A stretch of DNA of 61,656 nucleotides, counting the filler, from Asterionella formosa (Eukaryota), in the NCBI GenBank assembly GCA_002256025.1. It is 24 parts of 24 records of this genome, joined end to end, with 100 filler letters (N's around TTAATTAATTAA, not from the genome) between each part and the next. Parts side by side here need not be neighbours in the genome. Positions count along the whole stretch, not along the records: positions 25,797 to 28,270 come from NKIB01015218.1; 23 more parts are not named here. One strand, given 5' to 3'. Positions 12,115-51,402 of this stretch are shown piece after piece. Positions within the stretch are counted from its first letter, which is position 1. The number at the start of each line of letters is the position of its first letter. The notes beneath the pieces are model-generated. The model was not told the origin of the DNA. It ran no database searches and worked only from the letters and a program-made list of their open reading frames with translations. Both the position numbers and the translations under genes were made by a program.

Positions 12115-15100
12115 CAGCGAGAGTAGTTGTTGGAGAGATTATATTTGTTGATATGGAGACTTTCATGATCCCTTTACCTTTCTGATTATGTTAAATGCTA
12201 AAAAATTCTGCTAGTCCCTAATCAGGGTTGAAGAATTGACATCCGAGGAGATCAAACTGAATGAGGTCAACGAAATTTGCTCGTTCTTACGCCGACTACT
12301 GCCTTGCTATTTCACTGCACTTTTTCCTCCCATTTTCATTTGTTGTGAAGTTACTCATGGCATTGGGCCAAAGTATAATCTTCTTTTGCCAGCATGAATT
12401 GGACGTAGGGAAGAAGGAAATTTAATTGCCCGAAAGGGAATCGGATTTGTGATGGCAAACATGTGGACCGCTCCTGTCCGCAATCATTTTTCCCATTTTA
12501 TTGGATACTTAGCATATGAGCATACAGACTAAATTATCCGAAAATGCGTTATCAGAGTCGACCGACATTTTAGACACCATACATGTAGGGAAGGATTCCG
12601 TCATAGATCATAACTGCACTGTGTCTCAGACTGTGTGTATCAAGGCAGAAAGCTCATGATTGAAATCCACTATTAACAGCGTTCTTTGACACATCGTCCT
12701 TTCCATGTCTTATCAGGCACTAGATATTGATGATTCTCGGTAAACTTGCGCTTTTCTTCAAATTTTCGCTTCCATTGTAGTTGAGAACTTTCAAATCAAA
12801 AATGANNNNNNNNNNNNNNNNNNNNNNNNNNNNNNNNNNNNNNNNNNNNTTAATTAATTAANNNNNNNNNNNNNNNNNNNNNNNNNNNNNNNNNNNNNNN
12901 NNNNNTACGTATGATTACCATAGATCACATGCATATTATGTAATATCTAATCGATTGCATTGCTTTGTAACATTAATAACCAAGCACACTTAGTATATAC
13001 TTATCATATATATATATCAATGAGTTTCAAATCAATAGGTCATACGATATGCTTATGATCAATGCAGGACTCTCACTCATATTATCAACTAACGTTTTGG
13101 TGTTCGATCTAAAGATAGTAATCGTGAGATCAAATCGGTTATTCATTCGGTCTAACAATTGGAATGCTAATATCAAATAGAAGTTTCAGCTTTCGATCTA
13201 ACATTCATTAATACTGATCTAACTTATTTCTCTCATTGATCATACCTGTGTTCGATCAATGATGAACACAAATCGAATGAAATGGATTGCTTTTTTAATA
13301 CTCAAATATTCTACTTCTGGTTTCCCATACTTTCCACTGTGCATCCTCTATCAAAATGAGCACAAAATTGTCATCAATACCTTAATTTTCACTTCCGGTA
13401 GCTATGTTTAGATTATTGCCTATTCAAAATGAAATGAGAGAGTCAACGAAATTGATGATGCTTTATTCGAACCTCTACCATTGCGAATGGCAGCAAGTCA
13501 CACTCTCCAATGTTCTTCTTATACGACTTTCCTGTAATATATAATAACAGCAATGTCAGCAAAACTGATGCATCAAGTAAGCGTAAGCAAGGCATCTAAA
13601 TGTAGATATGTGCAACGAAACGATCAATGAACAATCCATCACTCCAATTTCCGCATGAGCAGGCAATGTGCATATTACTTACCTATGCTCTCATGGTTGA
13701 TTGTTGCTTTCATTAAGAATGATAGCAAGCAAGCCACTTTTTCCAAGGTTCCTGTATGATTTTGAGGAGATAATATCAATGTTAGCAAAAGTGTTGCAAC
13801 GATTAAAGCATCTCCAGCCACACATGTGCCACGAACTGATGACATAAACAATCTATGTAACGCACTTCACGTTCCAATCGACATAATGAGCATCAAATGA
13901 GAGTATAGTAACTTACCTATGCTCTCCCATTTGATTGATAGGTGACAGGTAGCGTTGTTAACTCTCACTTCTGCGTGCATATATGGAAGGGAAAGATGTT
14001 ATTAATGTCGAAATCCAAATTATTGGACACAGACACTACAAAGCCTCTGATATCTTCGGTTTCTTACCTCGTATTTAGGTTGATTTTTATCGTTCGTCCT
14101 GAGGAAGTATACCGGTAGAAACTTTGAGTGGTAGCAGCGCACACCACGAGCAGCGATACAATTTTATAGTTGGCTTTCGGTCTCACACGGTACCGATCAC
14201 AAGCCCCTTGGTAGCCACAGTTGAGATCATATAACTTACCTCTTCCCACCGGTTATATTGATACCGGTAGAAGGCTCTCGATCACCATTCCCTCATCAGT
14301 TTGTTATGTGGAACAGAACGCATTACCGGTATGAATTTTTTAACAATATCTCAACATTTCCTCTTCTTCAAAAAGTGTGTATAACATACATCTCTGCATG
14401 TCTAGTAACTTTTTTGAAGGAACATTTAATACCCTACCAGTATGTTATGTTAGATAAAATATACAAGACTTAACAGGAATTCGAATACTGTACCCGATAT
14501 ACTTCCAGTTATCATATCCTATATAGTGGACAGGAGTGGACACCATGTATCATAGGTAGATATACATACCGTCAAATTTTACTGGTACTTACATGATGGA
14601 GGAATACTGGAACTTACATGATGCTCAGTAGAGTACAGTAACAGGACCTCGTACATCACCGTTATCCAAGCGGGAACTACCCTGGTACCAGGGGGTACCG
14701 TATATGTCGTCTATGTTCCTGTTGGTACTGTTCTGACGTTCAAATTTGTCGACGGTATTGATCCATACTACCGTTTGGTATTTGAACATGATTGAAAACA
14801 CTTGAAAGGCATTATTATGATATAATGCCGAAGTACTCAGATTATAACATAGGTAGTGAATGATAAATTAACATTTCTGTATGATCTAAGAAACCAACTC
14901 CCTTTTTAATAATTTGCGCGCCAATAATAATATGAGACTTTTCTCTTTTATTATTGTTTCATTCTTTGATTTTAAAGCATCAGCGGCCCGTTTACCTTGA
15001 CTCCTGTACATTGTTATCCTCATGTCCGGTAGAGGAATAAAAAGAAGCGATAATTCTAGAGTTGAAAACAACTTACCGCAACAGTAACCAGGATGAAAAG

Positions 15101-25390: not shown

Positions 25391-26944
25391 AATTGTTTGA
25401 TTGCAATCTGCCCTGAATTGATTGAGAAAAACAGAACGAAATGGATCTCGAGAAATATCGCGACATGATTCGTGAGGATGCAAGCAACAACCAACCCTAA
25501 TGAGGACAAAATAGGTACGGAACAAAACATTTAATATTAAATTTGAAATGCTAAACTAAATATCTATTCGAATTAGTGTGTGTTATCGACTGCAAATCTT
25601 CGGAGTGCTATTGGGCATGAATTGATGGAGAAAATCGAAGCGATGTGGTTGTTGGCAAGTGGGTGCATGAAGCATATCAACAATCATCCTTACCATNNNN
25701 NNNNNNNNNNNNNNNNNNNNNNNNNNNNNNNNNNNNNNNNTTAATTAATTAANNNNNNNNNNNNNNNNNNNNNNNNNNNNNNNNNNNNNNNNNNNNAAGA
25801 TACCACCATGGAGGATGAAGATGATGATGAGGGCGATGAATGTGGTCCAAGAAAGGTCAAGAAAGGAGAAAGTGAAAAGAGGGAAGCCACAAATAAACGG
25901 CAACGAGTTGATGAACAGTTTGCAAATCAGCTTTGAAATAGGATTTTCATCTGATGGTCTTGTGATAGTGGTAGATGATGGCAGTGCTAACTATATTATC
26001 CACTCAAATAACAATGCTTGCAATTTGCTTTATGTTATGCAATGAGAAGGAGATATGCTGTGATCTTAAGAACTAAGCTGAACAAGCTTGTGGACCTGTG
26101 TACTAGAATTATAGCTATTGCTCGTAGTAAATTTTTCTTATGATTGAACCCCTTTTTTTTTAAAAGAATCATAATTGTAATACGTGTGTAGGGTACGTAA
26201 TGGTTTACATCGTGCTTATTCTAAATACCGGTAAACAAAACCATCGGGAATTGGAGGATCACATTTAAAATAATGATAGTACCCTGGGGGTACTACCGGT
26301 AAAGGAGTGATGCTGTTCCTGTACGAATACCGTAGTACCTTGTACCACCTGTACAGTCAGTCCGTCCATCGAACGTCTACCCGTTAGAAGAATACCGGTA
26401 TGTTTACCAATAATTAAGTGTACGGGTAGGTCTACGTAGTATTACCGTACATGGTACAACTGTGCGTATATCAAACATTCATAAACTTCTGCGAGGATTA
26501 GTACCAAGCAAGTTGGGGTAATTGTGCTGAAACTAAAAGCTTTGCTTATTACCCCATATTTAATTGACCGCAACGCTGGCACCTTTAAGTTTCGGTAATT
26601 GTGCTGAAAATAAAACATTTAGCTTTCTTTATCCAATATTATATATTTTATTTAAGCAAAATGACCGCAACTTTTGCTGGTACCAGGTACTCCGGAGCAC
26701 CTCGCAGTCTAAATTTACTATACATTATCCTCACATACGCATGTCAATTTATGTGAAGGTATTACCGGTAGTAAGCCCATCAATTTTAGTCTCATCTAAT
26801 AAAATATGAACGAGCTTGGTACTTATCCCGGGAACGTAGTCGTAAAAAATTAAACTCCCAGTTAAACCCGTAGTGGAAGCTAGCACTAGTAGTTTGCTAC
26901 TACTCCAGGACAGTGGACAAAGCTATTCTTGGCGACAATATCGG

Positions 26945-27050
26945 TTGTGGTACCAGGTACCAGTACCTAGTACTGGTACCGGCGCCCATTTGCTCGTATC
27001 GACTGGTTACCAGGGTACCGGTACCAGGTACCGTACCAGGGTACGTGTAT
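26945..27050. repeat. Cluster of nested GGTACC/ACCGGT/CCAGG palindromic micro-motifs
   Basis: tggtaccaggtaccagtacctagtactggtaccgg...ggttaccagggtaccggtaccaggtaccgtaccagggtac. Similar clusters at 28034-28056, 28088-28112 and 30501-30582. Confidence 0.9.
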
Positions 27051-28370
27051 GCGGGAATATACCATTTTATGTATTTAGAGTACCTAGTACTTTATATGGA
27101 GTCACCACGAGTACATATACTATAGCACTATATTACAGTAAATAGAGGACCAAGTCTTTTATTGTAGGGGTGTGTGTATATGTCTAATATACATATACCC
27201 GAAATGAAGTGAAAACAATCATTAAATAGCTAATGAAAAATAGTGAAAAAATAATGTAGCTACAGTTGTATGAAATCATGCATCTGTGTAATAATAACCT
27301 AAACACATACTAGCTGTGTATGACCACCAGTGTGATGATCAGCAGATATCCTCAATTGATTGGCAATCTAATCTGTGGCACTGTTCTATCTGGAATATAT
27401 ACCTCATACATTTTGTCAATTTGCAATGTGGCAGTGAAAAAAAACGCAGCTCAAAGTACTAGGGCAGTCATCATATCCCACAAAACGCTTTGCCAAGCAA
27501 CAATACTCCACCTTTCTTACTATATCCTGCTCAACCCTTGTAAAATTTTCAGCAACCTTACAAACCAATTCCAAATTTTTGCATTCCTACCACAGAACAA
27601 ATAGTTTTTGGTTGTACAAGAAAGACTACAATACTGACAGAATTGCTTCCTCCCTCCTACCTCTTTGACACACATCCTGCATCATTTCTGTTGGTTCATC
27701 AACTTGTTAATTGTTGAAAAGTTCTTCAAACACCACATTTGAGGCATTTCTGGACTCTCAATCATCATTCTGCATACTTGTCACTCCTGCTACCACCAAT
27801 AACTAGTAGTCAGGAGTCAACACTCCTTCAAGACGAGAGTCGACTGGCTGCTGTCATCCACATTGGTATCAAAACTAGGTGACATTGCATCTCGATCTGC
27901 TGGGAGGCAGTGCAACCCAAGTATATAGTTCCAAAAGCAAACTGGCAGCTCAGACTTCCCTCCTTCACCTGCTGTTGGTGTCCCATCAGTCACACCTTCC
28001 TCTCCTTACTGCTGCTGCATACCGAAGCACCGTGTACCAGGTACCAGTACCGGTACATGACTGAGGATGGGGTTTAATTTGTGTATACGACCGGTACCAG
28101 GTACCAGGTACTACAGTGTAATAGCTAATTTTATGTACTCGTACAGTGTATATTCCTACGATGATCGTGCGTACAGTTATGGTTTAATTAAACCAAAAAA
28201 TTAAACCCCCAGTTAAACCGGGTTTAATTTTTCTACTGGCAAATACTGTTGTAACACGGTGCTTCCACTANNNNNNNNNNNNNNNNNNNNNNNNNNNNNN
28301 NNNNNNNNNNNNNNTTAATTAATTAANNNNNNNNNNNNNNNNNNNNNNNNNNNNNNNNNNNNNNNNNNNN

Positions 28371-28760: not shown

Positions 28761-30944
28761 GATACGGATATCTCACTAAAGACGAGGAAAAGATTATGCT
28801 CTGTGGTACCCAACGGTTTTTTCAGGATAAAAGTACTTATCAAAAGTTTCGCTCTGGGTAATTTTGTTGTCTCATCATCAGCTTTTAAATACGATTACTG
28901 TCTGTACTATGGCTTGATGCGATTTTTGGGGCGACCGGGTAGTCCCTTTTGGCGTAGTATTAGCATAAACCCTAATCCTACGGTATATAATATTTTGCGC
29001 CTGGATTGGCATGTTATAATCACACCCACCATGTAGTCATTATTCTGTTGCTTTACTCAACAATAGAACATCCTCCTGTGCCGCTTCAAATAGCTTTCTT
29101 TCCTCCATGAGTAGCGCTTCTATTAAACACTGGAAGCGGCATGGGACAACACATATTGCTTTTTATATGAACTTTTTTGTTGGGCATGGAGATCCACGCC
29201 TAGCTACATGACCAATGGTTTCACACTCTTGAGCTTGATAGTGGGCAAGCTGGAGCTGAAACTTTATAGGAATGTCTCAAATAAGATCATGTAGAAGTTG
29301 CAATGAAGATACAACAATAATTTCACACCCATCGCTGCGCAATGGACTTCGATTTCATGTTTGTCATGAATGAATGCAACGATGACAACAACGAGATTGC
29401 GGATGCATGTGTACATAAACTTTATACATATGAATGTTATTTATATAGAACATTTTACTTCAGCCCAAATTATGTTGTACTGGTAGCCAGAATTATTTTG
29501 TATCGGTAGCTACAATGGCTACCCAATGTATTAATTAATTAATAGATAAAGGGATTCACAAGTCCCTTATGTGAAGGTCATTACTACGGTAGATGTTAAA
29601 ACATTGGTACAGCTTATTAGTACTATAGACAAAGGAAACATGGGATGTGCACAAAGTGTGCATGGAAACCACAGAAAAACAGGAGAGATCGGAATACTAC
29701 AGGCAGGCTGAGGAAAATTGAGCAACCATGGGAGCCAGCAAAAATTGAAGATGAAGTTCGAAAGCAAGCAAGCGACATGTAAACCACGCAAGGAGAATGT
29801 CATGGAAGAGTCGATCTGCCAGAGAACAACCATGCAGAGGGTTCAAGGCAGAAAGCTCTTAATTCTGCAAATTAGCTTTCGACAAAAGGAAATTGTTGAT
29901 CACAAAGCCCTGCAAATTTATAGTCTTTAGATAAAAATTCACCCACCCAAACTCCTACCCATGGCTAATGTGCAAAACTCGACTGCAGCTAGTATGGGAA
30001 ACCCGAAGCAAAGGAACTACCCTAGCTTCTTAGAACCAAATTCAAAAAACCAACTATGAGTCTAGATTAGTTTGCGCACCAAATCAAACTCAACAAAGTA
30101 TCAGAAGAGGAACAAAGGAACATTTGCAGAAAAGGCAGTCGGATGAGTTGGTAATTGAGTCGAAGTAACTTTGTCTGGAGGTATATATATATATATAAAT
30201 ATATCTTCATCGACCAAAACATTTTGCTCAGATTGATTTGGTGAGAACGTCGATTTCACGGGTCTGCTGTGCCAAGCGTTATTGATTTAACCGTTAACAC
30301 TCCTGCTCATGTCTGTTTGAATTCCTGTGCCTGCCCCTCAGCCGCTAACAACTTGAATGAGCGAAATTGCTTTGCTGTACGTTTCGGTAGGTAGTAATTA
30401 ATGGATTGTGCTGAGACTAAGAGTTTAGCTTTCTTTTTCCCATATTGAATTGTTTCTTTTTTAGCAAAATGACCGCAGAGTCCGGGAAATCCTCCTTGCT
30501 TGTACCAGGTACCGGCACAAGGAAGGACTAGAATGGTACCTGGTACATACCGGTACCAGGTATGCACTAGCTTACCGGTACTTTTCTAGAGACTAGTAAC
30601 TGATGTCACTGGTATCACATAACATGAGATTTCAAATACAGTACCGCTAAAAAAGGAGGCGAGGCCGACGCCAAAGAATGCCAGAAATTTGCGATGATTA
30701 TTTAGAATGGAAAGGTGATGTCGAAGTATGCCTGTTTATAAGCTATGACCACCACCGGGCTCTGCGACTTGGCGTGTCACACTCATCATCAGAACAAGAG
30801 CAAGAAAGAATAGAAGTGATGAAGAATCCCAATCAAATCATTGCNNNNNNNNNNNNNNNNNNNNNNNNNNNNNNNNNNNNNNNNNNNNTTAATTAATTAA
30901 NNNNNNNNNNNNNNNNNNNNNNNNNNNNNNNNNNNNNNNNNNNN

Positions 30945-33418
30945 GTTCTCGGATATGCCTTTGCTGTTACTCTTGGAGCGCTGTTTGCTGGAAAGACTAC
31001 CATGTGGGACGGCATCCCATCGGCTGTCTCTGTCGTTGTCTTCTTCCTGCTCATGGCCTTTGTTGGAATGATGGAGGGTATGCAGATTGCCCTTTTCGCC
31101 GTTCTCAACATGCCCGAGGAAGAGCTCACCAAGCACACAATCGCTCACAAGAACTGTCAGTTAACCTTCTCTGGACAGAACTTACAGGCCTTCTTGATCG
31201 GACGTCAGATCTGTGTGACTGTGTGCATGTTCATTGTTGCGCGCATCACGTCTCTTGACTACACTGCTGGCGACAGCAACATCTTCGGTGTATCCGATGG
31301 ACTCCAGAACTTTTTCAACACTGGTCTTATGGGAGCAATTATCACCACCATTGTTGGGTCCCTGGCATGGCGTATTATTGCATCATCGTTTCCACTTGCC
31401 TTCCTTTCCAACCCTCTTATTTACCTGATTATTAGACTATGTCTCCTTCTTGAAGCCTCCGGTCTTTGCTCTGCTGCATGGGTTCTTGCCCGTTTCAACA
31501 AACCTCTTGCTGGATACCAACCTGATGAGGTATACCTTGAGGGCGCCGAGAAGCATACTTCTGCTCCTGTTACTCGACGTGACAAAGATATCGACCGTGT
31601 TATTACAGTTTTCAAGTTCACCTATTCTCTTGGCCTTATGGCTTTTTCTCTTCTCATTGTCATGGCTGCTATCTTCTCCAATCAAACGAAAGGCACCGGA
31701 CAAAACAGCATCCCCCCTATTGTGGCATTTATTGTTTTCTGGTTCCTCATCCTCTGGCTAGCTATGATGGAAGGAGGCCAGGGTGCACTTGTTGGCCTCC
31801 AACCCATTGAAAAGGATAAGTACGCTGAATCCCACCCTCGTGCCTTGAAGAATACACTCCTCGCACACAAGGGCGACAACATGGAGCGCTTCATTGTTGG
31901 ACGTCAGTTTTTGGTTGTCTTGGTCGTTTTCGTCACCAACTTGATGGCCTCCGCCATCCCGGATGCTTCTGTCCTCGGATTACCGGATGTCCTGAACCAA
32001 ATCTTCCTTTCAACTGGAATTGCTCTTATCTTGACAGTTATCATGCTTGGTCAGTTGACTGCTCAAGTCAACGCAAGTAACTGCTTGCTTGATTTCATCA
32101 ACAACTACTTCATGTTGTTCACCACATATGTCTCCCTTGGCATTGAATTCTCTGGTCTCTTGCACTCTGTGTATCTTGTTCAGATCTTCTTCTCCAAGAT
32201 CAGCGGAAAGCCAATTGACTCAAAGGAACCTCCAAGAAACGCTATCCAGAATTTGTTCTTCTGGTTCCGTGTTTTCATGTCTATTCTTATCCTTGGATTT
32301 GCTTTCGCCGTAACCCTAGGAGCACTGTTTGCTGGAAAGACTACCATGTGGGCGGGCATTCCTTCAGCTGTGTCAGTCGTTGTTTTCTTTATTCTCATGG
32401 CCTTCGTGGGTATGATGGAGGGTATGCAAATTGCTCTTTTCGCCGTTCTCAATATGCCTGAGGAAGAACTCAAGCAACACAGTATTGCTTACGCCAACTG
32501 CCAATTGACATTTACTGGACAGAACTTGCAGGCATTTTTGATTGGTCGTCAAATCTGTGTTACCATCTGTATGTTCGTTGTCGCTCGCATTACCACCCTT
32601 AACTACGGTTCTGATGACGCCAACATCTACGGTGTTTCCGATGGTTTGCAGAACTTTTTCAATACCGGTCTTCTGGGAGCTGTGATCACTACCATTGTTG
32701 CTTCCCTTGCATGGCGTATCATCGCTTCGTCATTCTCCTTGGCTTTCTTGTCGAACCCTCTCATCTATCTCATCATCCGACTGTGTCTCATGCTTGAGGC
32801 GTCTGGACTTTGCTCAGCTGCTTGGGTCCTTGCTCGTTACCACAGGGTCATTGTTGATTACCAACCTGATGAAGTTTACCTTGAGGGTGCCACGCGATGG
32901 ACTGGTGCTCCAGCTACCAAGCGTGACAAGGATATTGATATCACTGTAACCGTGATCAAGTACACGTACTCATTTGCTCTGTTGGCATTCTCGGTAGCCA
33001 TTGTCATGTCTGCTATCTTCACGAAGCAGACAAAGGTTGCTGCCAATGTGAGCCCAATCTTGGCTTTCTTTGTGTTCTGGGGATTGCTTGCATGGTTGGC
33101 AATGATGGAAGGAGGCCAAGGATGTCTTGTGGGACTTCAGCCCGTTGACAAGGACCTATACGCCGAATCACACCCAATTACTGTCAGAAACACCCGTCTC
33201 GCTCACAAGGGTGACAACATGGAGCGTTTCATTGTTGGACGTCAGTTCCTGGTTGTTCTTGTTGTTTTCATTACCAACATGTGTGGATCCCCCATTGCCG
33301 ACGCAACTGTGCTTGGATTGAGCTCTACATTGAACGACGTATTCCTTACGAACGGCATTGCAATGATTTTGTCTACCATTATGATTGGACAGCTCACTGC
33401 TCAGATCAACGCCGCCAA
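30945..33418 (+). CDS. SIT: Multiplied silicon transporter (at least three SIT units fused in one ORF), partial at both ends
   Basis: GXQ motifs in order EGMQ/GRQ (31074), EGGQ/GRQ (31770), EGMQ/GRQ (32418), EGGQ/GRQ (33108). Period about 1340 nt. CLLD variant of the CMLD motif at 32082. No stop or intron between units. Confidence 0.97.
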
Positions 33419-38662: not shown

Positions 38663-41117
38663 CTCATGCCTAGATTAATTTCATTGGCAGCCACTTTTTC
38701 TATCACTGCCTCAGACATCATCAAATTCAATAGATGTCGTCTGTATCTGCAGGTGCTCACTCTGTCCGACATTGTCGACAGTACAGGCAACACCATTGAT
38801 AAGGACTTTTGGAACAGATACAAAAACAATAGAGTCTTCAATCTCTCCTGGCCCAAACAAACCCGCCCTGGCCCCACCAGCTGGACAATTTGGAGACGCC
38901 TACTTTCACACCTCTTCACCATCAAATCTCGCTCCCCTCACCTTCGCCCTCAAAGCTGTCTCCTCAAATGGCTTCCCACTGGACCCTCTCACCAACACTG
39001 GCCGACATATTTGCATCCATCATCTTCTACCTTCTATTGTCGCCTCCCCTCTGATCCTTCCCTCTTCTCCCCTTATCGTCGGAACAATCGGCTCCGCTTC
39101 ACACCCACTCCAAATAACCTTACCTCCACTCTTCCCTCTTCCGCCATTCCAATTTCGGTCTCTTCCTGGCTCCCCTTCCCGCAAACTCTATCCCACCATA
39201 TTCGAATTCTCCCCTCCCTTCTCCCTGAATCACATCTCCCACCAACCTTCTCCACCTACCTTTCATCTCTCTCTTCTTATGACAATTATTATATCGGCCA
39301 GGTTACCTTCCCGCCCGATATTCTACCACTCCTCCAAGATATCAAAACCAATAATTTTGAAGTTGCCACTGATGGATCAGTCCGCTCTCCCCATGGCTCT
39401 TTCTCATGGCTTATTCATGGCCGCTCCAGTGGCACCCAAATCTCTGGCTACAACACTACCACCTTCACCGCCACCCCTCTTTCTTCCTTCCGGACAGAGT
39501 GCTGCGGCTATCTTGGTGCAGTTCTTGCTCTTCGTGCTCTTCTTACATACCATGATCTTCTAGATCCCCTCACTCCTTTCACTGCTAGAGCTCACATCGA
39601 CAACCAGGCCCTAGTCAAGCGTCTGTCTCACCACCATCAACACTCAATTCGTCACAGTCTCCACCCAGACTGGGACCTTATCCACTCAGCCACGAAGGTT
39701 CTGGCATCTATCCCGGTCGATCTCCAGGCGGTTCACATCAAAAGCCATCAAGATGACAGCAAACCCTATGAAGCCTTAACTCTGCCTGCAAAACTCAATA
39801 TCCAAGTTGATAGACTCACTCATTTAGCCTATCTCCGCTGCCCCCAGCGCTCTATTACTCCGCTTTCCCCTCAAGTCCCCGCTACCCTCCTTCTTCAGGG
39901 ATCTCAAGTTACATCTCAGATGATCCCTACAACTCTGACAGCGTACTATAAGCCCAAACAATTCAAGTACTTCCAAACACGACACGGATGGACGCAGTCA
40001 ATCTCTGACTCTATTGACTGGAAGTCTTCCACCAGCGCATACAAACACTTGTCATACGGACGCAGACTAGCAATGTTTAAGTTAATAAATGGACAATGGC
40101 CCACCAACAAAATCTTACATCGCCGTGGCAAAGCCCCGGCTTCCTTATGCCCACGCTGCTCCAATGCCGTTGAGGACCACGATCACGTCCTAACCTGCTC
40201 AGCTTCTTGCCACTTTCGGGATACAAAGTGGACCGCTCTCTCTGACCATCTGAAATCCAAACTTTGCACTCCTCCCCATATTCTCCTTGCCCTAACCCAT
40301 GGTCTCCAATCGTGGGAAAATGGTGACATTCCCCCACTTTGGCCTCTTCCAGATCCCTCCCCAACCGACCCTCTTCTTTGGACGACCTATCAGGCATATG
40401 TCCAACAAACAGCTATAGGATGGAACCACCTCCTAAGGGGACATCTATCAGTTTCTTGGGCCCATGCCATGACAACCTATCACTCCATCAGACACATCAA
40501 GACCAACGCTATGAATCCTCTCTTTGGAAAAGTCAACTAATCAACTCCTTACGCGCCTATGCCATGGAACAGTGAAATAATCGCAATGATTTTGTCTATG
40601 GCGCCACTCTCCTTGCCACTAATGCACGCCGAATCACATTGCTTCGAACACAGACAACTACAGCTTACTCAAACCAGATCTCTGTCCCAGCTGATGAACG
40701 AGGACATATATTTGGCCTTCCTCTCTCTCAACGCTTACTTCATTCCCCGTCGGCACTGACGGCCTGGCTGGCAATCTATCGTGCGGGTCAACTACGCCTC
40801 ACATCCCAAATACGTCAAGACAAACGCCGCTAGGGCACAATCCGAAAATTTCTTATCTGTCGCGCAACCCCTCGCCGTCCCTCTTCACCTGTCTAAGTCC
40901 ATCTAATCGAACTCCACACTTTAGTCGAGGCTCAATAACGCGTACTTAAAAATTTAGTTACCATATATCATTAGAAGTAACTATTTGCAGAAATAGGTAC
41001 CTGGTACCAGTGAATTACCTGCTATGAGTCAACAGGTACCAGGTTCCGTATATTTCATTATCCTGGCCCCCCTAATGTACACTGCCGTGACTTGGGGGGG
41101 GGGGGCAGGACAAAAAA
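38663..41117 (+). mobile_element. 3' half of a non-LTR retrotransposon with RNase H and CCHC finger (Ambal-like), degenerate at the 3' end
   Basis: NRCRLYLQV..LSDI, RNase H TDGS..SFRTE..IDNQ..HIKSHQD..N..VD, CPRC..EDHDH..C, QQ.IGW..LLRG. Frameshift near 40510; ends in a GC hairpin plus short A tract. Confidence 0.85.
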
Positions 41118-43699: not shown

Positions 43700-44029
43700 N
43701 NNNNNNNNNNNNNNNNNNNNNNNNNNNNNNNNNNNNNNNNNNNTTAATTAATTAANNNNNNNNNNNNNNNNNNNNNNNNNNNNNNNNNNNNNNNNNNNNT
43801 AAATTGCAAAAATTTGAAATATAACTAAGAATTTAAAAAACATAAAGAAGGAATACAAATAATCCGATGTATACATAAAAACTGCCGACCATAATTTCAA
43901 AATACTGCTGTTAGGGTTAGGGTTAAGGCTCTCTCTTCTTGGTATGAAGTAAATACTACCTGAACAACAAAGAAGAACATACAAACAAAATAAGGACGTG
44001 CCTGTGACTGTACCAAATCCCAGGTACCA

Positions 44030-45260
44030 TAATTTCAAATCAGTGTCGGTCACCAGCATAAATCAACAAAGGTACAAGTACAAGTACAAATACATTATAC
44101 TGAACATTTCAAATCAGTGCCCGTCACCAGTATAAATCTATACATTATACTGTACAGTAAAAAAACGATCTCTTCTCTGTCTACGGAAGACATGCTACCG
44201 GATAGATCAATGAACTTCAAGGTACCACGTACCAATACATCATACCAGGTACCAGGTACTGAACAAATACACGTATGTGCAGCTACATAAAAATAATCAT
44301 AACAAAATACCTATACTGTACAGTAAAAAAAAGGATCTCTTCTGTGTCTACGTAGGACATGCTACCGGATAGATCAATGACCTACCAGGTACCACGTACC
44401 AATAATCATAACAAAATACCGATCGTCATTTCAAATCAGTACCAGTAAACCAGTACAAATATACAAAGGTACAACTTTGTCATACAACCATTATCATTGA
44501 CATCAAAAACAAACACACCATGACGATCACACCGTCCATTGTTTCTCATCCAATTCTTGTCCAAATGAAAACGTCTTTACTCGATTCAGTGAACCCAACT
44601 CATCTTCACATATGACATAAAATTCTTTTTCGTACCGATACCAATTACATCTTTCAAACCATATAAACATGCCGCAACTGATGCCCTGCCCACGGCCAAA
44701 AAGAAATAACGAATATTTCCACTCCACCATGATAATCAGGACGCACCCGCGAATGCGAATTATATAAATATATGACATGCATAACATAATGTGTAACATT
44801 TTACATGACAATCACTCTGGTAAGTACAAAAACAGTGCCCTTCTACATATTCATATCAAAAACAAACAACCAGTACTTACATATTCATTCCCATACCAGT
44901 TTCCATCTGTAGGAATAGTCATACTGCGTACTACAGTTACATGTCCAGCCCTAGAGGGCTGGATGCTCTATAGGGATGACGCCTAGAGGCGTCTTCCCTT
45001 TACCCTAACCCTAACCCTAAATCCTATTGTAAACCTATTGTAGTTTCTTTTAAGTATATTCTTATTGTAAACCAATTGATGTCTTTAAGTATCATAGGAC
45101 GTAGGTCTTTTGTGGTAATAGTATGATTCCCGAAGGTAACCGAAGGTAAGTATAGTTCTATTGTAAACCTATTGATGTTTTTAAGTATCATAGGACGTAG
45201 GTCCTTTGTGGTAATAGTATGATTCCCGAAGGTAAGTATAACTCTATTGTAAACCTACCT
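44030..45260. repeat. Non-coding repeat region with direct repeats, twin hairpins and telomere-like hexamers
   Basis: ~90-bp duplications at ~44147/~44314 and ~45062/~45158; hairpins at 44944-44999; (CCCTAA)3 at 45003-45020. Confidence 0.8.
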
Positions 45261-45773
45261 CGAGCTAGGGGTTCAAAGGCAGGAACCTTAACAGATAGAG
45301 GTAGACTATCTTGCCTACATGAAACGGTACCTGGTACCAGTACCTAGCACCGTATTATGTCGCCATATGCATACGACCATGTTTAAGTAAGTTGTTTGGT
45401 TTGGAGGTAAGGGTGGTGATCTATGTGAAGGTTTATGATGATACCCCAGAGTATTAAAAAAATTTAGTTAACCGGTAGTAAGTATATGATGTGATTTTAC
45501 CTTGCATACTGAATACGTATGTATACTGACGACCCTGGGAGTACGATGGTATGGACACAATTTGAACTAAAGTTACCTACCGGTAACTACGCCATACTGC
45601 CACATCAAGAACATAACGGAAGGCCATTGCTAATGATTGACTAGACAATTACAGATACACTATTTCGTAATCAAAATATAACAGTTTCATAATTACATAA
45701 TAAAAACTAATTGATCTTCCTAAATATTACCATAATGACCATCTCCCATGTTGGGTCAATATGCGAAGTGCTC

Positions 45774-46368: not shown

Positions 46369-48834
46369 ACCTTAACTACACTACGCAAACATCCCCCTCA
46401 TTCCATCGCAACCGTCAAAGGCCACCTCGATCAAACATGTCAAAACGTACAATCCACACGTGTGCCCCCAACTATCATTGAGCCTGAACTTGCATCCATT
46501 CCTACTACCAATGTGCTGGGTGATGCTGATTGCCACCCTGAGGGTCTTGCAACCCCTACTCACATGTGTTTTGCGTCCATTATTGAACCCACAGGCCAAA
46601 TTTACACTGATCAAACCGAAAAATTCATACTCCCCTCCAGCACTGGAAACAACTACATTATGATTTTATATGATTATGACAGCAACTACATTTTCGTTCA
46701 GCCCTTTCATAACCGAACCGCTTCCTGCCTCCTTGCAGCATATAAAACATTACATCAACGGTTGTGCAAAGCAGGCTTATGTCCCAAACTCCAACGCCTT
46801 GACAATGAGTGTTCTACACTCCTCAAAGAGTTCTTGGACGCAGAAGCTATTGACTTTCAGTTGGTCCCGCCGGCTGTCCATCGTCGCAATGCCGCTGAAC
46901 GTGCAATTCGCACCTTTCAAAATCATTTCATTGCCGGTCTATGCAGTGTCGACAAACACTTTCCTCTCCACTTGTGGGACCAACTATTAGTTCAAGCTGA
47001 ACTTACTCTTAATCTCCTCCGTGACACACGCATCAACCCCAAACTGTCTGCTTGGGCACAGGTCAATGGAACATATGATTACAACTGTGTCTCCCTTGCT
47101 CCACCTGGCTGTCGGTTCCTTGTTCATGCCAAGCCCCAACACCGAGCAACATGGGCTCCGCATGCTCTCGATGGTAGGTATGTCGGCCCTGCTGTGGATT
47201 CCTATCACTGCTACCGCATCTGGATGTGGGACACACGTTCAATCAGAATCTGCGATACTGTCTTGTGCTTTCCAACCAAAGTCCACCTACCCTGTAATTC
47301 ATCTACTGACCTCATCACAACCAGTTTGCAGGACATTGCCTATGCCTTGTTACATCCCACCACTCGGTCTCCCGTTGCCCCACTCACTGCAACCCACAAA
47401 GCTGCTCTCCAGCAGCTCCTTGAACTTCTCTCACCGCCTGAGCTCACCCAACTACCCATTGCTCCCCTCCTGCATCACCCCATTCCATCTTTGAGGGTGC
47501 CCGGTACACCCACAGCATCCACCATCCCCCTTCTCCCTGATGCTGATGCCTGTATACCTTTTCCGGTCTCTCCCACCCTCGATGGCACTGCCCAACCACT
47601 GAGGGTACTTAACCCTAACCCTAACCCTACCCCTACCGACCCGAGTGTTGTTAACCCTACCCCAAACCCTAACCCTCACCGCGCCGGTAATCCTAACCCT
47701 ACCCCTAGGGCCCCTCCTGCCAGTGGCTGCACGATCCTTCCAGCACCCCCTCGCACTTATCACGATGCTGTTGTGCTGCCCAGTCCCCTACCACCTTCCC
47801 CTTCGGACACTTATGACACTACCACTGTGCCCAAGAGCCGTCGTCGCCATTAAACCACACTACGTGATGCACCACATGCCAGCTGTCCCCACACCCAATC
47901 TTTGCTTGCCAAATGTGCTCTCTCCGCCCCTCCTCAAACCAGTGCTACTCCCCTGGCAACTAATTTTTGTTTCCATGGCACCGCTATCAACCCTGACAAT
48001 GGCAAAATTGCAGGATATCGAGAATTATTGACTTGCAGCACTGCTCCCCTGTGGGCCACCGCCAACGATTAGAAATTGGCCGGTTATTTCAGGGCTTGGG
48101 ACCCCATTCTGACATGCCCACGGGTACTAATTGCTGTTTTTTCATTCATAAGCATGAAATGCCCTCACACAAATGCGCCACTTACATCCGCATTGTGTGT
48201 GCCGATCGCCCTGAAAAACCATTCCCCAACGAGTTCGTTTGAAGGAGGTTTTATCAAGTGCTGCTGAGGCCGAATTAGCTGCTTTGTTCCACAATGGCAA
48301 AGAGGCATATGCTATTCGCAACATTCTTGTTGAGCTTGGTCATCCCCAACCTTCTACCCGTATTGTCACCGATAATAGCACTGCCAGTGGCATTGCCAAT
48401 GATACCGTCCGACAAAAACGTTCCAAAGCTATGGATATGCGTTATTACTGGGTACGCGATCGGGTTCGCCAAGGCCAATTTCTTGTATACTGGAAAAAAG
48501 GGAGTTTGAATCGTGCTGATTATTTCACTAAACATCATCCCGCTTCCCATCATATGTTGATGCGCCTGCACTATCTCCATTGCCCTCCATCCCTCCCTAG
48601 TCCTCCTAACTATTATGCGTGCTTGGCTTCCGATGCTGATATCATCTCCACCCCCGTTCCTGTTCTTCTGCCTGAATCTGTTGGTGAGGGTGTGTTAATA
48701 TCTGCATATGATGCTCCATACATGCTCCGTACGAACCATACCGGCGCAGCCACCAGATTAGGTACATGCATGAGTGCTAACAACGATGTACTCGAAACAG
48801 CAATAGAATAGTCATAATATTGTAGTTCACCTTT
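46369..48834 (+). mobile_element. Degenerate CoDi-type Copia: integrase, RT almost entirely deleted, RNase H, start of 3' LTR (~48693)
   Basis: IYTDQT, RLDNE, HRRNAAERAIRTF. RT start (ATY.RIVCADRPEK..RVR) is fused at ~48239 to RNase H (SSAAEAEL, TDNSTA, KRSKAMDMR, ADYFTKHH). Purine tract ggtgaggg then TGTT. Confidence 0.92.
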
Positions 48835-49028: not shown

Positions 49029-49700
49029 ATGTCTCGATCTTCTTCTGTTCAAAGGAGAGCATACAGGGAGGGATTCCCTTCCTCTCCAAGGCTGCTTGAG
49101 CGTCTCCATCACCAACAAGAGCAACAACAGACTCAACCAGAAGAAGAGGAGGAGGACGACGACGAGAATTAAGATGACACTGGTGCTGATAAGTTTGCCA
49201 GCAACAATGAGGACAGTAGGATGGGTGTCCCAGGTGCTTCTCAGATTGGTGTTTCTGGGGTTACTCAGTCCCCATCAAGGAACAACAACTATATTTCACG
49301 TGTTTCAAGAACGGCAACTGCCAGGCAACCACCAATGTTTCCAAGGGCTCGCCGAAGCATGCAGAGTCGGGGTCAACAGTTCAGGATCAATGAGATTCTC
49401 TCATTGCTTGACGCCATTTCTACTCACCTGCCAAATGGGTCCCATGAAAGGGAAGTTGTTGCTTCACAGCACAACGAGAATTTCCCAGACAAAGAACAGA
49501 CAGGACCTTCACTTCGCCGAAAGTTTACACAGCTGCACAAAGTTAAGAAACCAACTGGGGACCCAACATGCCCTGCTGAGGTGAGATATGCCAAACAAAT
49601 TTTTCGAAGAATCGATCAATGAGCAGATGCAAGTGCTGAGATTGAATCCACTGATCTTGGAATAGAGAGTGAGCACAATGAGCCCAATATTGATGAACCA
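49029..49700 (+). pseudogene. DUF6818 / Myb-SANT-like protein, disrupted by stops (transposon accessory type)
   Basis: F...E...LL..I...LP.G..E...V...HN...SLRRKF..L.....PTGDP.CP.EV..AK.I; in-frame stops near 49170 and 49620. Confidence 0.7.
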
Positions 49701-50338
49701 TATGTTGATGATGAGTTTATAGCAATTTCTGGTGGGGAGAGTGAAGACAATGGTGGAGCAACATCTGCCGCTTATGCTGATTTCTCTGGTTCAAGATTTC
49801 CTTGACCTATGGTGTCCCCTCGATTTAGAGATAAAGCAGTGTCACGCAATACTGGGTCTGTTGAGAAAGTTTTTTCTCTTCTTTCGATGCAGTTGCTTCT
49901 TCACAAGGCTACTCGAGCTGATGCTGATAACCTGCAGCAGCAGCAACAAGAAAAACAGAAAGAGAACATGATGAACATGGCTGATGATGGTGTCAATCAT
50001 GGCATCATTGTTGAATCCCACACAAGGTAATCAGAGCATCATCATGCTTGCTAGTACAACGGATAACCCTAACCCTTCTAAAATTTATGTTGCGAGCAAA
50101 AAACCTTGCTGTTTTGTGTCCACAATGGCCATCATTGAACGTCGCTTTTCTTTAGACCACATTGCGATCTTGCGGATCCAACTCCGATTCGAGATTCACA
50201 ATCATCTTTACTAATAGAATGAGTCGATGGATCCGCGAGGTCACTCATTCTCATTTAATTTTGAGCTATTTTAATTTTATCTGTTCAGAAAGTTCCTACC
50301 AACAGAAATGAATTCCAATCGAGCTCCTGGGTGACCAC

Positions 50339-51402
50339 ATGCACCTGAGATCCAATGTTGAAGATGACATGAAGTTCACAAAGACTGTTTTGACAAGAAA
50401 GATTTTTATAATTCATAGAAAGACAGGAAGAGAGGCAAATAAAGTGGTTCTGGCGGAAAATCTTCTGGTTTACATGTATCGGCATGGTCATCGTGAGAAA
50501 GGAAGTGGTCGGCGTGAGTTTTTGTACCTGAAAATGGAAGGAGGAGTCAAGCCCCACTTTCCATCTGGAAAGAATGCATCTTTGTGGGTGGATACATGTG
50601 TTGCAAGGAGATTGTGTGGTGGGAGGAAGGATGGCAATGTAGTAATTGATGAAATTTTCACAAAGGTGATGACACCTTCTGCCAATAAAAGAAAATGCGA
50701 CTTTGGTGAAGAAGCAAGGAATAGTGACAATACAGCAGATGATTCTCGTCGTTCTGACTCACTTTATGATAGCAATCAACCTCATGTTCCTGGAATTGTC
50801 GATTGGTGGACTTCTGGCGATGCCGGCTCCTTTTTGCGCCATTTGCCAAATACAACAATTATTGCAATGTGAAAGGACGTTGTCATGGACAGAATTGAAC
50901 TATTTGAGTCGGTGAATCAGAATTCAAGCAATTGGAGACTTGTTGTTGAGGAAGGGGATAAGGAAAATACATGCAGCTCCAATGATACATTTATGATTCA
51001 ACAAAGATGTATGTATTTGGTGATTGCATCGCACAAGTTTGTAAATGAAGAACAAACTGGAATGAGATGGACATGGAAGAAGTGCATCATGCATTCCATG
51101 AGTGAAATGAACGATGTTGTTGTTGAAGTCTGCACTAACTGGCAACCTTTACAGCGATGGCATCGTCGAATTGTTAATAGGTTCAACAATACTTTCTTGA
51201 AGGCACCATCTGCCAAGCAATTAATGCCACCATTTTTCCGGGAGCACCCAGATGCTATGGATGCATTTAAAAGATATGGAGTGGTTCACTTGAAGGAGCT
51301 GTCCATTGAATTGATGCATAGCTATGTGCATGATAGCTTGATTCCAGCGACAATGAAGAGTGGGACAGGCATTGTTTGACGAAGACACAACAAGCAACAA
51401 CA
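50339..51402 (+). pseudogene. N-terminal part of a probable IS630/Tc1-like transposase, frameshifted
   Basis: WTW..C..LQRWHR..PPFF..HPD....K.Y...L.ELS.EL.H.Y.HD..IP resembles, from recall, the region before the DDE core of diatom transposases. The catalytic core is not in the contig. Confidence 0.45.

Follow-up and report, generated by a model that had tools for sequence, protein, structure and literature searches.

The irregular arrays of short palindromic units in the non-coding DNA of the diatom Asterionella formosa are, with a probability of roughly 0.7, stacked excision footprints of TA-duplicating, pogo-type DNA transposons, among which a family with CCAG ends (family B) would seed its own chains. 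Homologous copies differ by the gain or loss of a core plus one TA at a TA, the units fall into two classes, their cores match the ends of resident elements, neighbouring units lie in mixed orientation, and the TAs occupied by family B have biased flanks. That excision rather than another repair route wrote each unit is what we infer from these observations, as are the family that would have written a given unit, the overhang lengths and the direction of change at most sites. The footprint-array interpretation put forward in a first-pass annotation of this DNA is largely right for units with a CCWGG core and too broad for the rest.

The units and their two classes

The window is the whole stretch of DNA analysed, 61,656 nucleotides with filler included; it is a concatenation of contigs of some 2.5 kb with N spacers between them, not one piece of a chromosome. 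The assembly (GCA_002256025.1) comprises 68.4 Mb in 15,436 contigs, and the array at the centre of this work lies in contig C15218 (window positions 25797-28270). The features discussed below are as follows.

26951..26982, no strand: sub-array 1, five cores (CCAGG, CCAG, CCTAG, CTGG, CCGG)
27008..27043, no strand: sub-array 2, five cores (CCAGGG, CCGG, CCAGG, CCG, CCAGGG)
27081..27089, no strand: single unit, CCTAG in the window, at a G-TA-C site
28035..28055, no strand: third array inside element A, one to seven units in the 15 copies parsed
28091..28110, no strand: fourth array inside element A, variable in the 15 copies parsed
26828..28270, plus strand: element A, a gene-less TIR element of about 1.55 kb with CCG...CGG ends, TA-flanked, cut by the contig end
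26226..26233, no strand: solitary TA-CCGG-TA outside element A; bare TA in the homologous contig C13211
26294..26301, no strand: solitary TA-CCGG-TA, absent from the homologous contig, with substitutions nearby
26509..26676, plus strand: tandem pair of decayed copies of the 88-bp MITE, which duplicates CWG and inserts into TAC-CWG-GTA
14678..14702, no strand: three-unit chain in another contig
30503..30580, no strand: clustered single units and one short chain in another contig
40994..41010, no strand: short chain in another contig
44243..44258, no strand: two CCAGG units in equal orientation
45328..45347, no strand: three-unit chain (CCTGG, CCAG, CCTAG)

Between 26945 and 27050 the two sub-arrays of TA-separated cores cover 68 of the 106 bases, so that the parsing of this stretch as an alternation of TA and short cores holds, and the units occur in the window far above the expectation of a second-order Markov model: 24 against 0.53 for TA-CCGG-TA (TACCGGTA), 16 against 0.54 for TA-CCWGG-TA (TACCWGGTA), 12 against 2.24 for TA-CCAG/CTGG-TA, 5 against 0.10 for TA-CCAGGG-TA and 10 against 4.61 for TA-CCG/CGG-TA. 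The CTAG core listed by the first-pass annotation has to be dropped, TA-CTAG-TA being absent from the window; the actual unit is CCTAG, which at 27081 replaces the CCTGG or CCAGG of other copies of element A. Among the eight further clusters that had been pointed out, six hold chains of two or three units, while those at 14110-14350 and 26285-26460 consist of scattered single units. The presumed rarity in host genes is borne out: the seven long window ORFs taken to be host genes (11,097 bp) hold no unit, and the remaining 48,259 bp of the window hold 45; in 400 kb of other contigs, ORFs of at least 250 aa (126,825 bp) hold 8 units and the remaining 273,175 bp hold 299. A scan for bacterial promoters, a method not apt for a eukaryote, gave no match.

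The window also holds short telomere-like TTAGGG/CCCTAA runs within repeats (43910-43925, 45002-45020 and 47610-47705), a silicon transporter ORF (31002-33418) with three Pfam Silic_transp stretches in one frame that runs off its contig and points to a diatom or close relative as host, and, at 49221-51379, an ORF with a DUF6818 match and, after it, two ORFs that Pfam does not recognise, which may together be a two-gene DNA transposon.

The 400-kb sample, which is made of eight long contigs and is not random, separates two classes of unit with different context and chaining. CCGG units (164 sites, about 2.9 expected) are solitary in 145 cases and chained in 19, whereas CCWGG units (143 sites, 3.2 expected) are chained in 79 and solitary in 64 (P = 9e-17). 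Solitary CCWGG units are preceded by G in 46 of 64 cases and followed by C in 39 of 64, and the flanks of CCGG units are near background. Self-amplification, which had been ascribed to the units at large, is accordingly narrowed to the CCWGG class, CCGG scars being mostly solitary, and the creation of a GTAC context by each footprint does not hold as a rule for CCGG scars. Part of the CCAG/CTGG units can be CCGG units decayed at CpG, where C/T differences are 3.4-fold higher. CpG decay as their sole source was rejected, the excess of CCAG/CTGG (80) being about eight times that of TCGG/CCGA (10), and it therefore explains less than half of them; in a second eukaryote, moreover, CCAG (77) is commoner than CCGG (15).

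Gain and loss of units within and beside element A

From 26828 on, at least 38 other contigs match element A (82-100% identity; of 1,244 candidates, 40 were scored). Complete copies measure about 1.55 kb, start with CCGGG, finish with TACGG, carry a short imperfect inverted repeat and, in most cases, have a TA at both ends. Three copies hold no ORF longer than 133 aa, and the interior gave no match to the transposase sequences compared; a decayed cysteine-rich coding remnant lies on the minus strand at 27350-27700. The array at 26945..27050 is thus also carried along and copied with an ordinary TIR element. To call such arrays neither microsatellite nor classical transposable element was overstated, since this one rides in element A. 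Some growth occurs by slippage, although pure slippage does fail as an explanation.

Twenty-three copies of element A span both sub-arrays. Sub-array 2 holds from one to six units across them (one in L032, two in L043, three in L046, four in L024, L027, L031, L040 and L050, five in the window and six in L038), its terminal CCAGGG-type unit being common to the copies, a variation in keeping with the stepwise gain of units that had been proposed for homologous arrays. The content of sub-array 1 varies as well, its CTGG unit being absent in L025, L032, L033, L040, L047 and L050 and replaced by CCG in L031. At 27081, six of the 23 copies have a bare TA and 17 have a five-base core (CCTAG in 12, CCTGG in 3, CATAG and CCAGG in 1 each) which is no copy of neighbouring bases. 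In a tree of 18 copy interiors, the window copy falls with three others in a supported group whose members all have the CCGG unit of sub-array 2; the deeper branches of the tree are weak, and for this reason no order of events is claimed.

Beyond element A, the unit at 26226..26233 is an exact six-base indel relative to C13211, which is 97% identical over 1,035 bases. An all-against-all alignment of 213 sequences (1,001 alignments) yielded 603 distinct indels with clean flanks, whose rows are not independent, as many come from element A and a substitution lets one site count again. Eleven of the 47 six-base indels are exactly CCGG plus TA at a TA, ten of them without tandem copy, a C..G core in this core-plus-TA form being expected in 0.47% of random six-base deletions. 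Core plus TA also describes 17 of the 25 seven-base indels, four of which are readable as tandem duplication too; 16 of the 17 lie at G-TA-C, a context found for one of the ten non-tandem CCGG indels. Empty sites therefore have one TA where filled sites have TA-core-TA, as the first-pass annotation had supposed in regarding units as gained at a pre-existing TA; insertion is the probable direction of change where the unit is in the minority of copies. Contigs of four public read runs on a 10-kb stretch were mostly repeat copies, and no scar unit was among the 12 of 288 indel rows listed. Indels of 3 and 4 bases in which a 2-3 base duplication is combined with one extra C or G (or GC) are also over-represented among the 603, and another superfamily of transposons may have left them as footprints.

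At three loci (L023 on C1548, L036 on C1958 and L025 on C14603) the right end of element A is fused to its left end and the TA is missing; the fused ends overlap by three common bases, as in a tandem dimer, a circle or an assembly collapse. We considered whether element A could be a CGG-duplicating or recombinase-type element targeting CCGG units, for which this head-to-tail junction without TA would speak; the flanks past the TA vary freely, however, and both readings predict identical letters.

Candidate sources and the targets of family B

A DDE_1 search of the genome returned 93 matches among 116 candidates, and none of 16 candidates matched the Tc1/IS630 DDE_3 transposases. Family P1 is a young DD35D pogo: ten contigs are 99-100% identical over 1,955 bases, and the element, of 2,460 bases, combines TIRs starting with CCGT, a duplicated TA on both sides and a DDE_1 match with the DD35D triad. 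The end of family P2 reads CGG+TA and that of family P3 CAGTG. Family B has TIRs that start with CCAG, are inverted at the two ends and have a TA on each side, the TIR and TA duplication features of pogo elements; its end motif has 176 matches in the genome (1 for the control). Only the C-terminal part, or pieces, of its transposase lie in the sequence analysed, for which neither Pfam, profile comparison (hhalign) nor a PDB sequence search gave a direct match, and a homologue search with the C-terminal piece returned 0 of 464 candidates. In six relatives, 51-58% identical, three aspartate motifs occur, the second and third separated by 37 residues (DD37D), and all ten best named Atlas matches of one relative were DDE_1 (top score 0.94); the structure model of a relative has a mean pLDDT of 51.5, the catalytic part lying mostly below 50. 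Family B is accordingly termed pogo-like here and is not a proven pogo.

The scar cores match the terminal bases of the CCG-ended P1, P2 and element A and of the CCAG-ended B, all of them resident TA-flanked TIR families, a match that is weak by itself, the ends being short. A CCGG core could come from joined terminal CC and GG or from CCG overhangs annealed through CG, and, were as many as four terminal bases to remain, the ends of family B could yield CCWGG, CCAG/CTGG and CCAGGG. On the footprint reading, insertion would double the TA, excision would leave a few terminal bases of each end, and end joining would seal the site as TA-core-TA. The CCG-ended families (P1, element A and kin) would leave CCGG, CCG or CCGGG at TAs whose flanks are little biased, on account of which their scars would stay mostly single. 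Family B would leave CCWGG, CCAG/CTGG or CCAGGG and favour TAs in (T)GG-TA-CC(A). Since a CCWGG scar starts with CC and ends with GG, each cycle would make two GG-TA-CC sites from one, and arrays would thereby seed their own growth. A minority of units would derive from slippage and others would be blurred by CpG decay; the arrays within element A would be copied along with it, and the CWG-duplicating MITE would target CCWGG scars.

For the flanks of family B, the first 40 distinct ends listed of the 176 matches gave 34 distinct TA-bounded flanks which, read toward the element, have a final G in 29, GG in 22, TGG in 15, CCTGG in 8 and CCAGG in 1. When the 16 scar-like flanks are set aside, G remains in 14 of 18 and GG in 8 of 18 among the ends listed, against an all-TA background of 25% and 7%; the flanks of family B may have acquired scars after insertion, and the two ends of one copy are not independent. 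The flanks of P1 have G in 6 of 16 and GG in 2 of 16. Family B thus seems to prefer (T)GG-TA-CC(A), the sequence formed where two scars meet, and the suggestion that full TIR elements sit preferentially inside arrays finds support for this one family, in its scar-like context.

In the local data, the flanks tested of A, B, P1-P3 and the MITE gave one empty-site pair for element A and none clear otherwise. In contig C13211, from which element A is missing, a CCGG unit occupies the start point of the window's copy; in this imperfect pair both TAs are altered, and a search with the right flank returned only C13211 itself. The imperfection of this sole element-versus-scar pair, the locally tested flanks of B and P1 having yielded none, counts against the footprint reading, as does the fact that the CCGG of sub-array 2 and four of the 17 seven-base gains can be read as tandem duplication. 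The reading also needs a very large number of cycles to have run to completion: the 307 scars in 400 kb extrapolate to tens of thousands, against 176 family B ends.

Rival readings and known systems

The strongest competitor, in our view still an unlikely one, is a palindromic microsatellite in which GGTACC-based units grow by slippage, template switching flips the central A or T, and no transposon is needed past the seed. Mutated units have indeed been duplicated (CAAGG in L050, CCAAC in L032 and CCAGGTGG in L031), the array stretch folds better than shuffles (z = -2.8), and similar arrays occur in bacteria-like contigs. Pure slippage would leave all neighbours in the same orientation and independent insertion would give 50:25:25. 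Genome-wide, in an assembly with redundant copies where pairs are not independent events, adjacent CCWGG units have the same orientation in 3,074 cases, CCTGG precedes CCAGG in 1,500 and CCAGG precedes CCTGG in 1,002. The same-orientation share, 55%, exceeds 50% and speaks for slippage, but 2,502 of 5,576 pairs (45%) face opposite ways, which makes slippage a minor though present contribution. A toy model, offered as an illustration and having no error bars, returns about 55:27:18, as observed, with 10% slippage and a 1.5-2-fold preference for TGG/CCA half-sites; the orientation excess is in the direction predicted by the flank bias of family B. Neighbours, moreover, are unlike in length and sequence (23 of 78 adjacent pairs in the 400 kb are identical), most indels are not tandem, and units appear at an isolated TA or GTAC, where no adjacent unit could serve as template, so that pure slippage of identical neighbours fails to account for the variation. 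The microsatellite also leaves the match to resident element ends unexplained.

A metagenome scan with a 25-letter array pattern returned 105 stretches in 58 clusters, some of them 72-90% identical to this genome. Loci L254, L259, L261, L270 and related ones form a second eukaryote with dense CCWGG, CCAG and CAG and few CCGG. Its 22 representative loci (55,530 bases), which were selected for arrays, contain 178 CCAGG, 77 CCAG, 77 CAG, 58 CCG and 15 CCGG, and carry genes that we take, from their protein types, to be diatom-like. High-GC contigs (L265, L279, L312, L320 and others), whose genes are presumably bacteria-like, hold CCAGG/CCTGG heptamer runs in short spacers, often head to head. Arrays of the CCWGG unit can therefore probably arise by other routes too, and slippage with template switching stays alive as a rival.

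Marginally less probable than the microsatellite is direct writing without a lasting insertion, whereby a transposase or nuclease would cut a TA or GTAC and repair would add end-derived or templated bases (abortive integration, end capture). Scars that far outnumber elements would suit it, as would the other stereotyped 3-4 base micro-insertions of the genome and the want of clean element-versus-scar pairs among the flanks tested locally. Yet the genome has full elements with matching ends and target context, so that ordinary insertion and excision suffice, the core spectrum tracks the element ends, and one element-versus-scar candidate exists.

We regard as very improbable that selection maintains the motifs in non-coding DNA as regulatory or protein-binding sites. 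Their strong enrichment outside ORFs would agree with it, but insertions, whether frame-shifting or in-frame, would be expected to be missing from genes anyway. Units are also freely gained and lost between copies 92-99% identical; they lie within transposons, coding parts of pogo copies among them, and are eroded by point mutations.

The 88-bp MITE, whose end motif has 570 exact matches in the genome and whose TIR starts with CAAG, usually reads TA-CCWG...CWGG-TA and is seemingly TA-flanked. Among 49 copies examined, 25 are uninformative because of altered flanks; in the other 24 the flanking CWG is direct in 23 and inverted in one, which points to a 3-base CWG target duplication and hence to a MITE that lands in CCWGG scars. 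Extra 2-3 base duplications beside the CWG in the flanks of copies L003, L009, L020 and L066 may be scars that the MITE left on earlier visits to the unit in question. That this MITE makes the scars is barely credible despite its abundance and its usual look, as the direct CWG tracks the site rather than the element and TAC precedes it in only 16 of the 24 informative copies, with GTA following in 17.

Returning to stacked footprints, it is tempting to go further and suppose that the preference of family B for its own scars drives a ratchet which writes mixed-orientation arrays genome-wide, enlarges the supply of harmless sites, is made use of by a second superfamily and operates in other diatoms too; we propose this extension tentatively, at somewhat less than even odds. 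Footprints are usually regarded as rare, single by-products of transposition. In this genome they appear among the most over-represented non-coding words (164 CCGG and 143 CCWGG in 400 kb), which would caution motif-finding studies that such palindromes need not be regulatory. Scars would offer a count of completed jumps that is invisible in resident elements. If true, the feedback between scar and target would be a route of repeat birth apart from slippage and element amplification, and the order of units would become a readable record of past jumps.

A literature search covering few subscription journals returned no paper on self-seeding footprint arrays or on these diatom motifs. Footprints and re-insertion next to a footprint are already known, all the ingredients being known chemistry; what we add are sites compared in their empty and filled states, the division of the units into two classes, the biased flanks of the CCAG-ended family and counts of unit orientation across the genome. 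With microsatellites the arrays share short tandem units and some slippage; unlike them, their units differ in length and orientation and arise at sites without a neighbour to copy. The 88-bp MITE resembles the NuwaI group of PHIS elements (PIF/Harbinger) in its CWG target duplication (PMC4482050); NuwaI TIRs usually start with GGG and the group was reported from animals only, whereas the MITE starts with CAAG and, unlike NuwaI, targets the scars of another superfamily. A Stowaway MITE in intron 4 of the Triticeae beta-amylase gene has undergone repeated insertion and excision at one TA site, with re-insertion beside an older footprint, as we propose here (PMC1925063); the excerpted account of it concerns one locus with at most a footprint and an element, and neither chains of many scars nor a genome-wide count. 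Closest in chemistry are the footprints of IS630-Tc1-mariner/pogo elements, which consist of a TA duplication and a few terminal bases as in the units described here: in the passages cited, excision of Sleeping Beauty leaves three-base overhangs (PMC7827188), and Passer, a pogo element, leaves 0-4 terminal bases and prefers the GTAC-centred palindrome AAGTACTT (PMC9976928). In the present genome, in contrast to those systems, the presumed footprints are among the commonest non-coding words and are chained, and one family appears to favour targets that look like the junctions its own scars would make.
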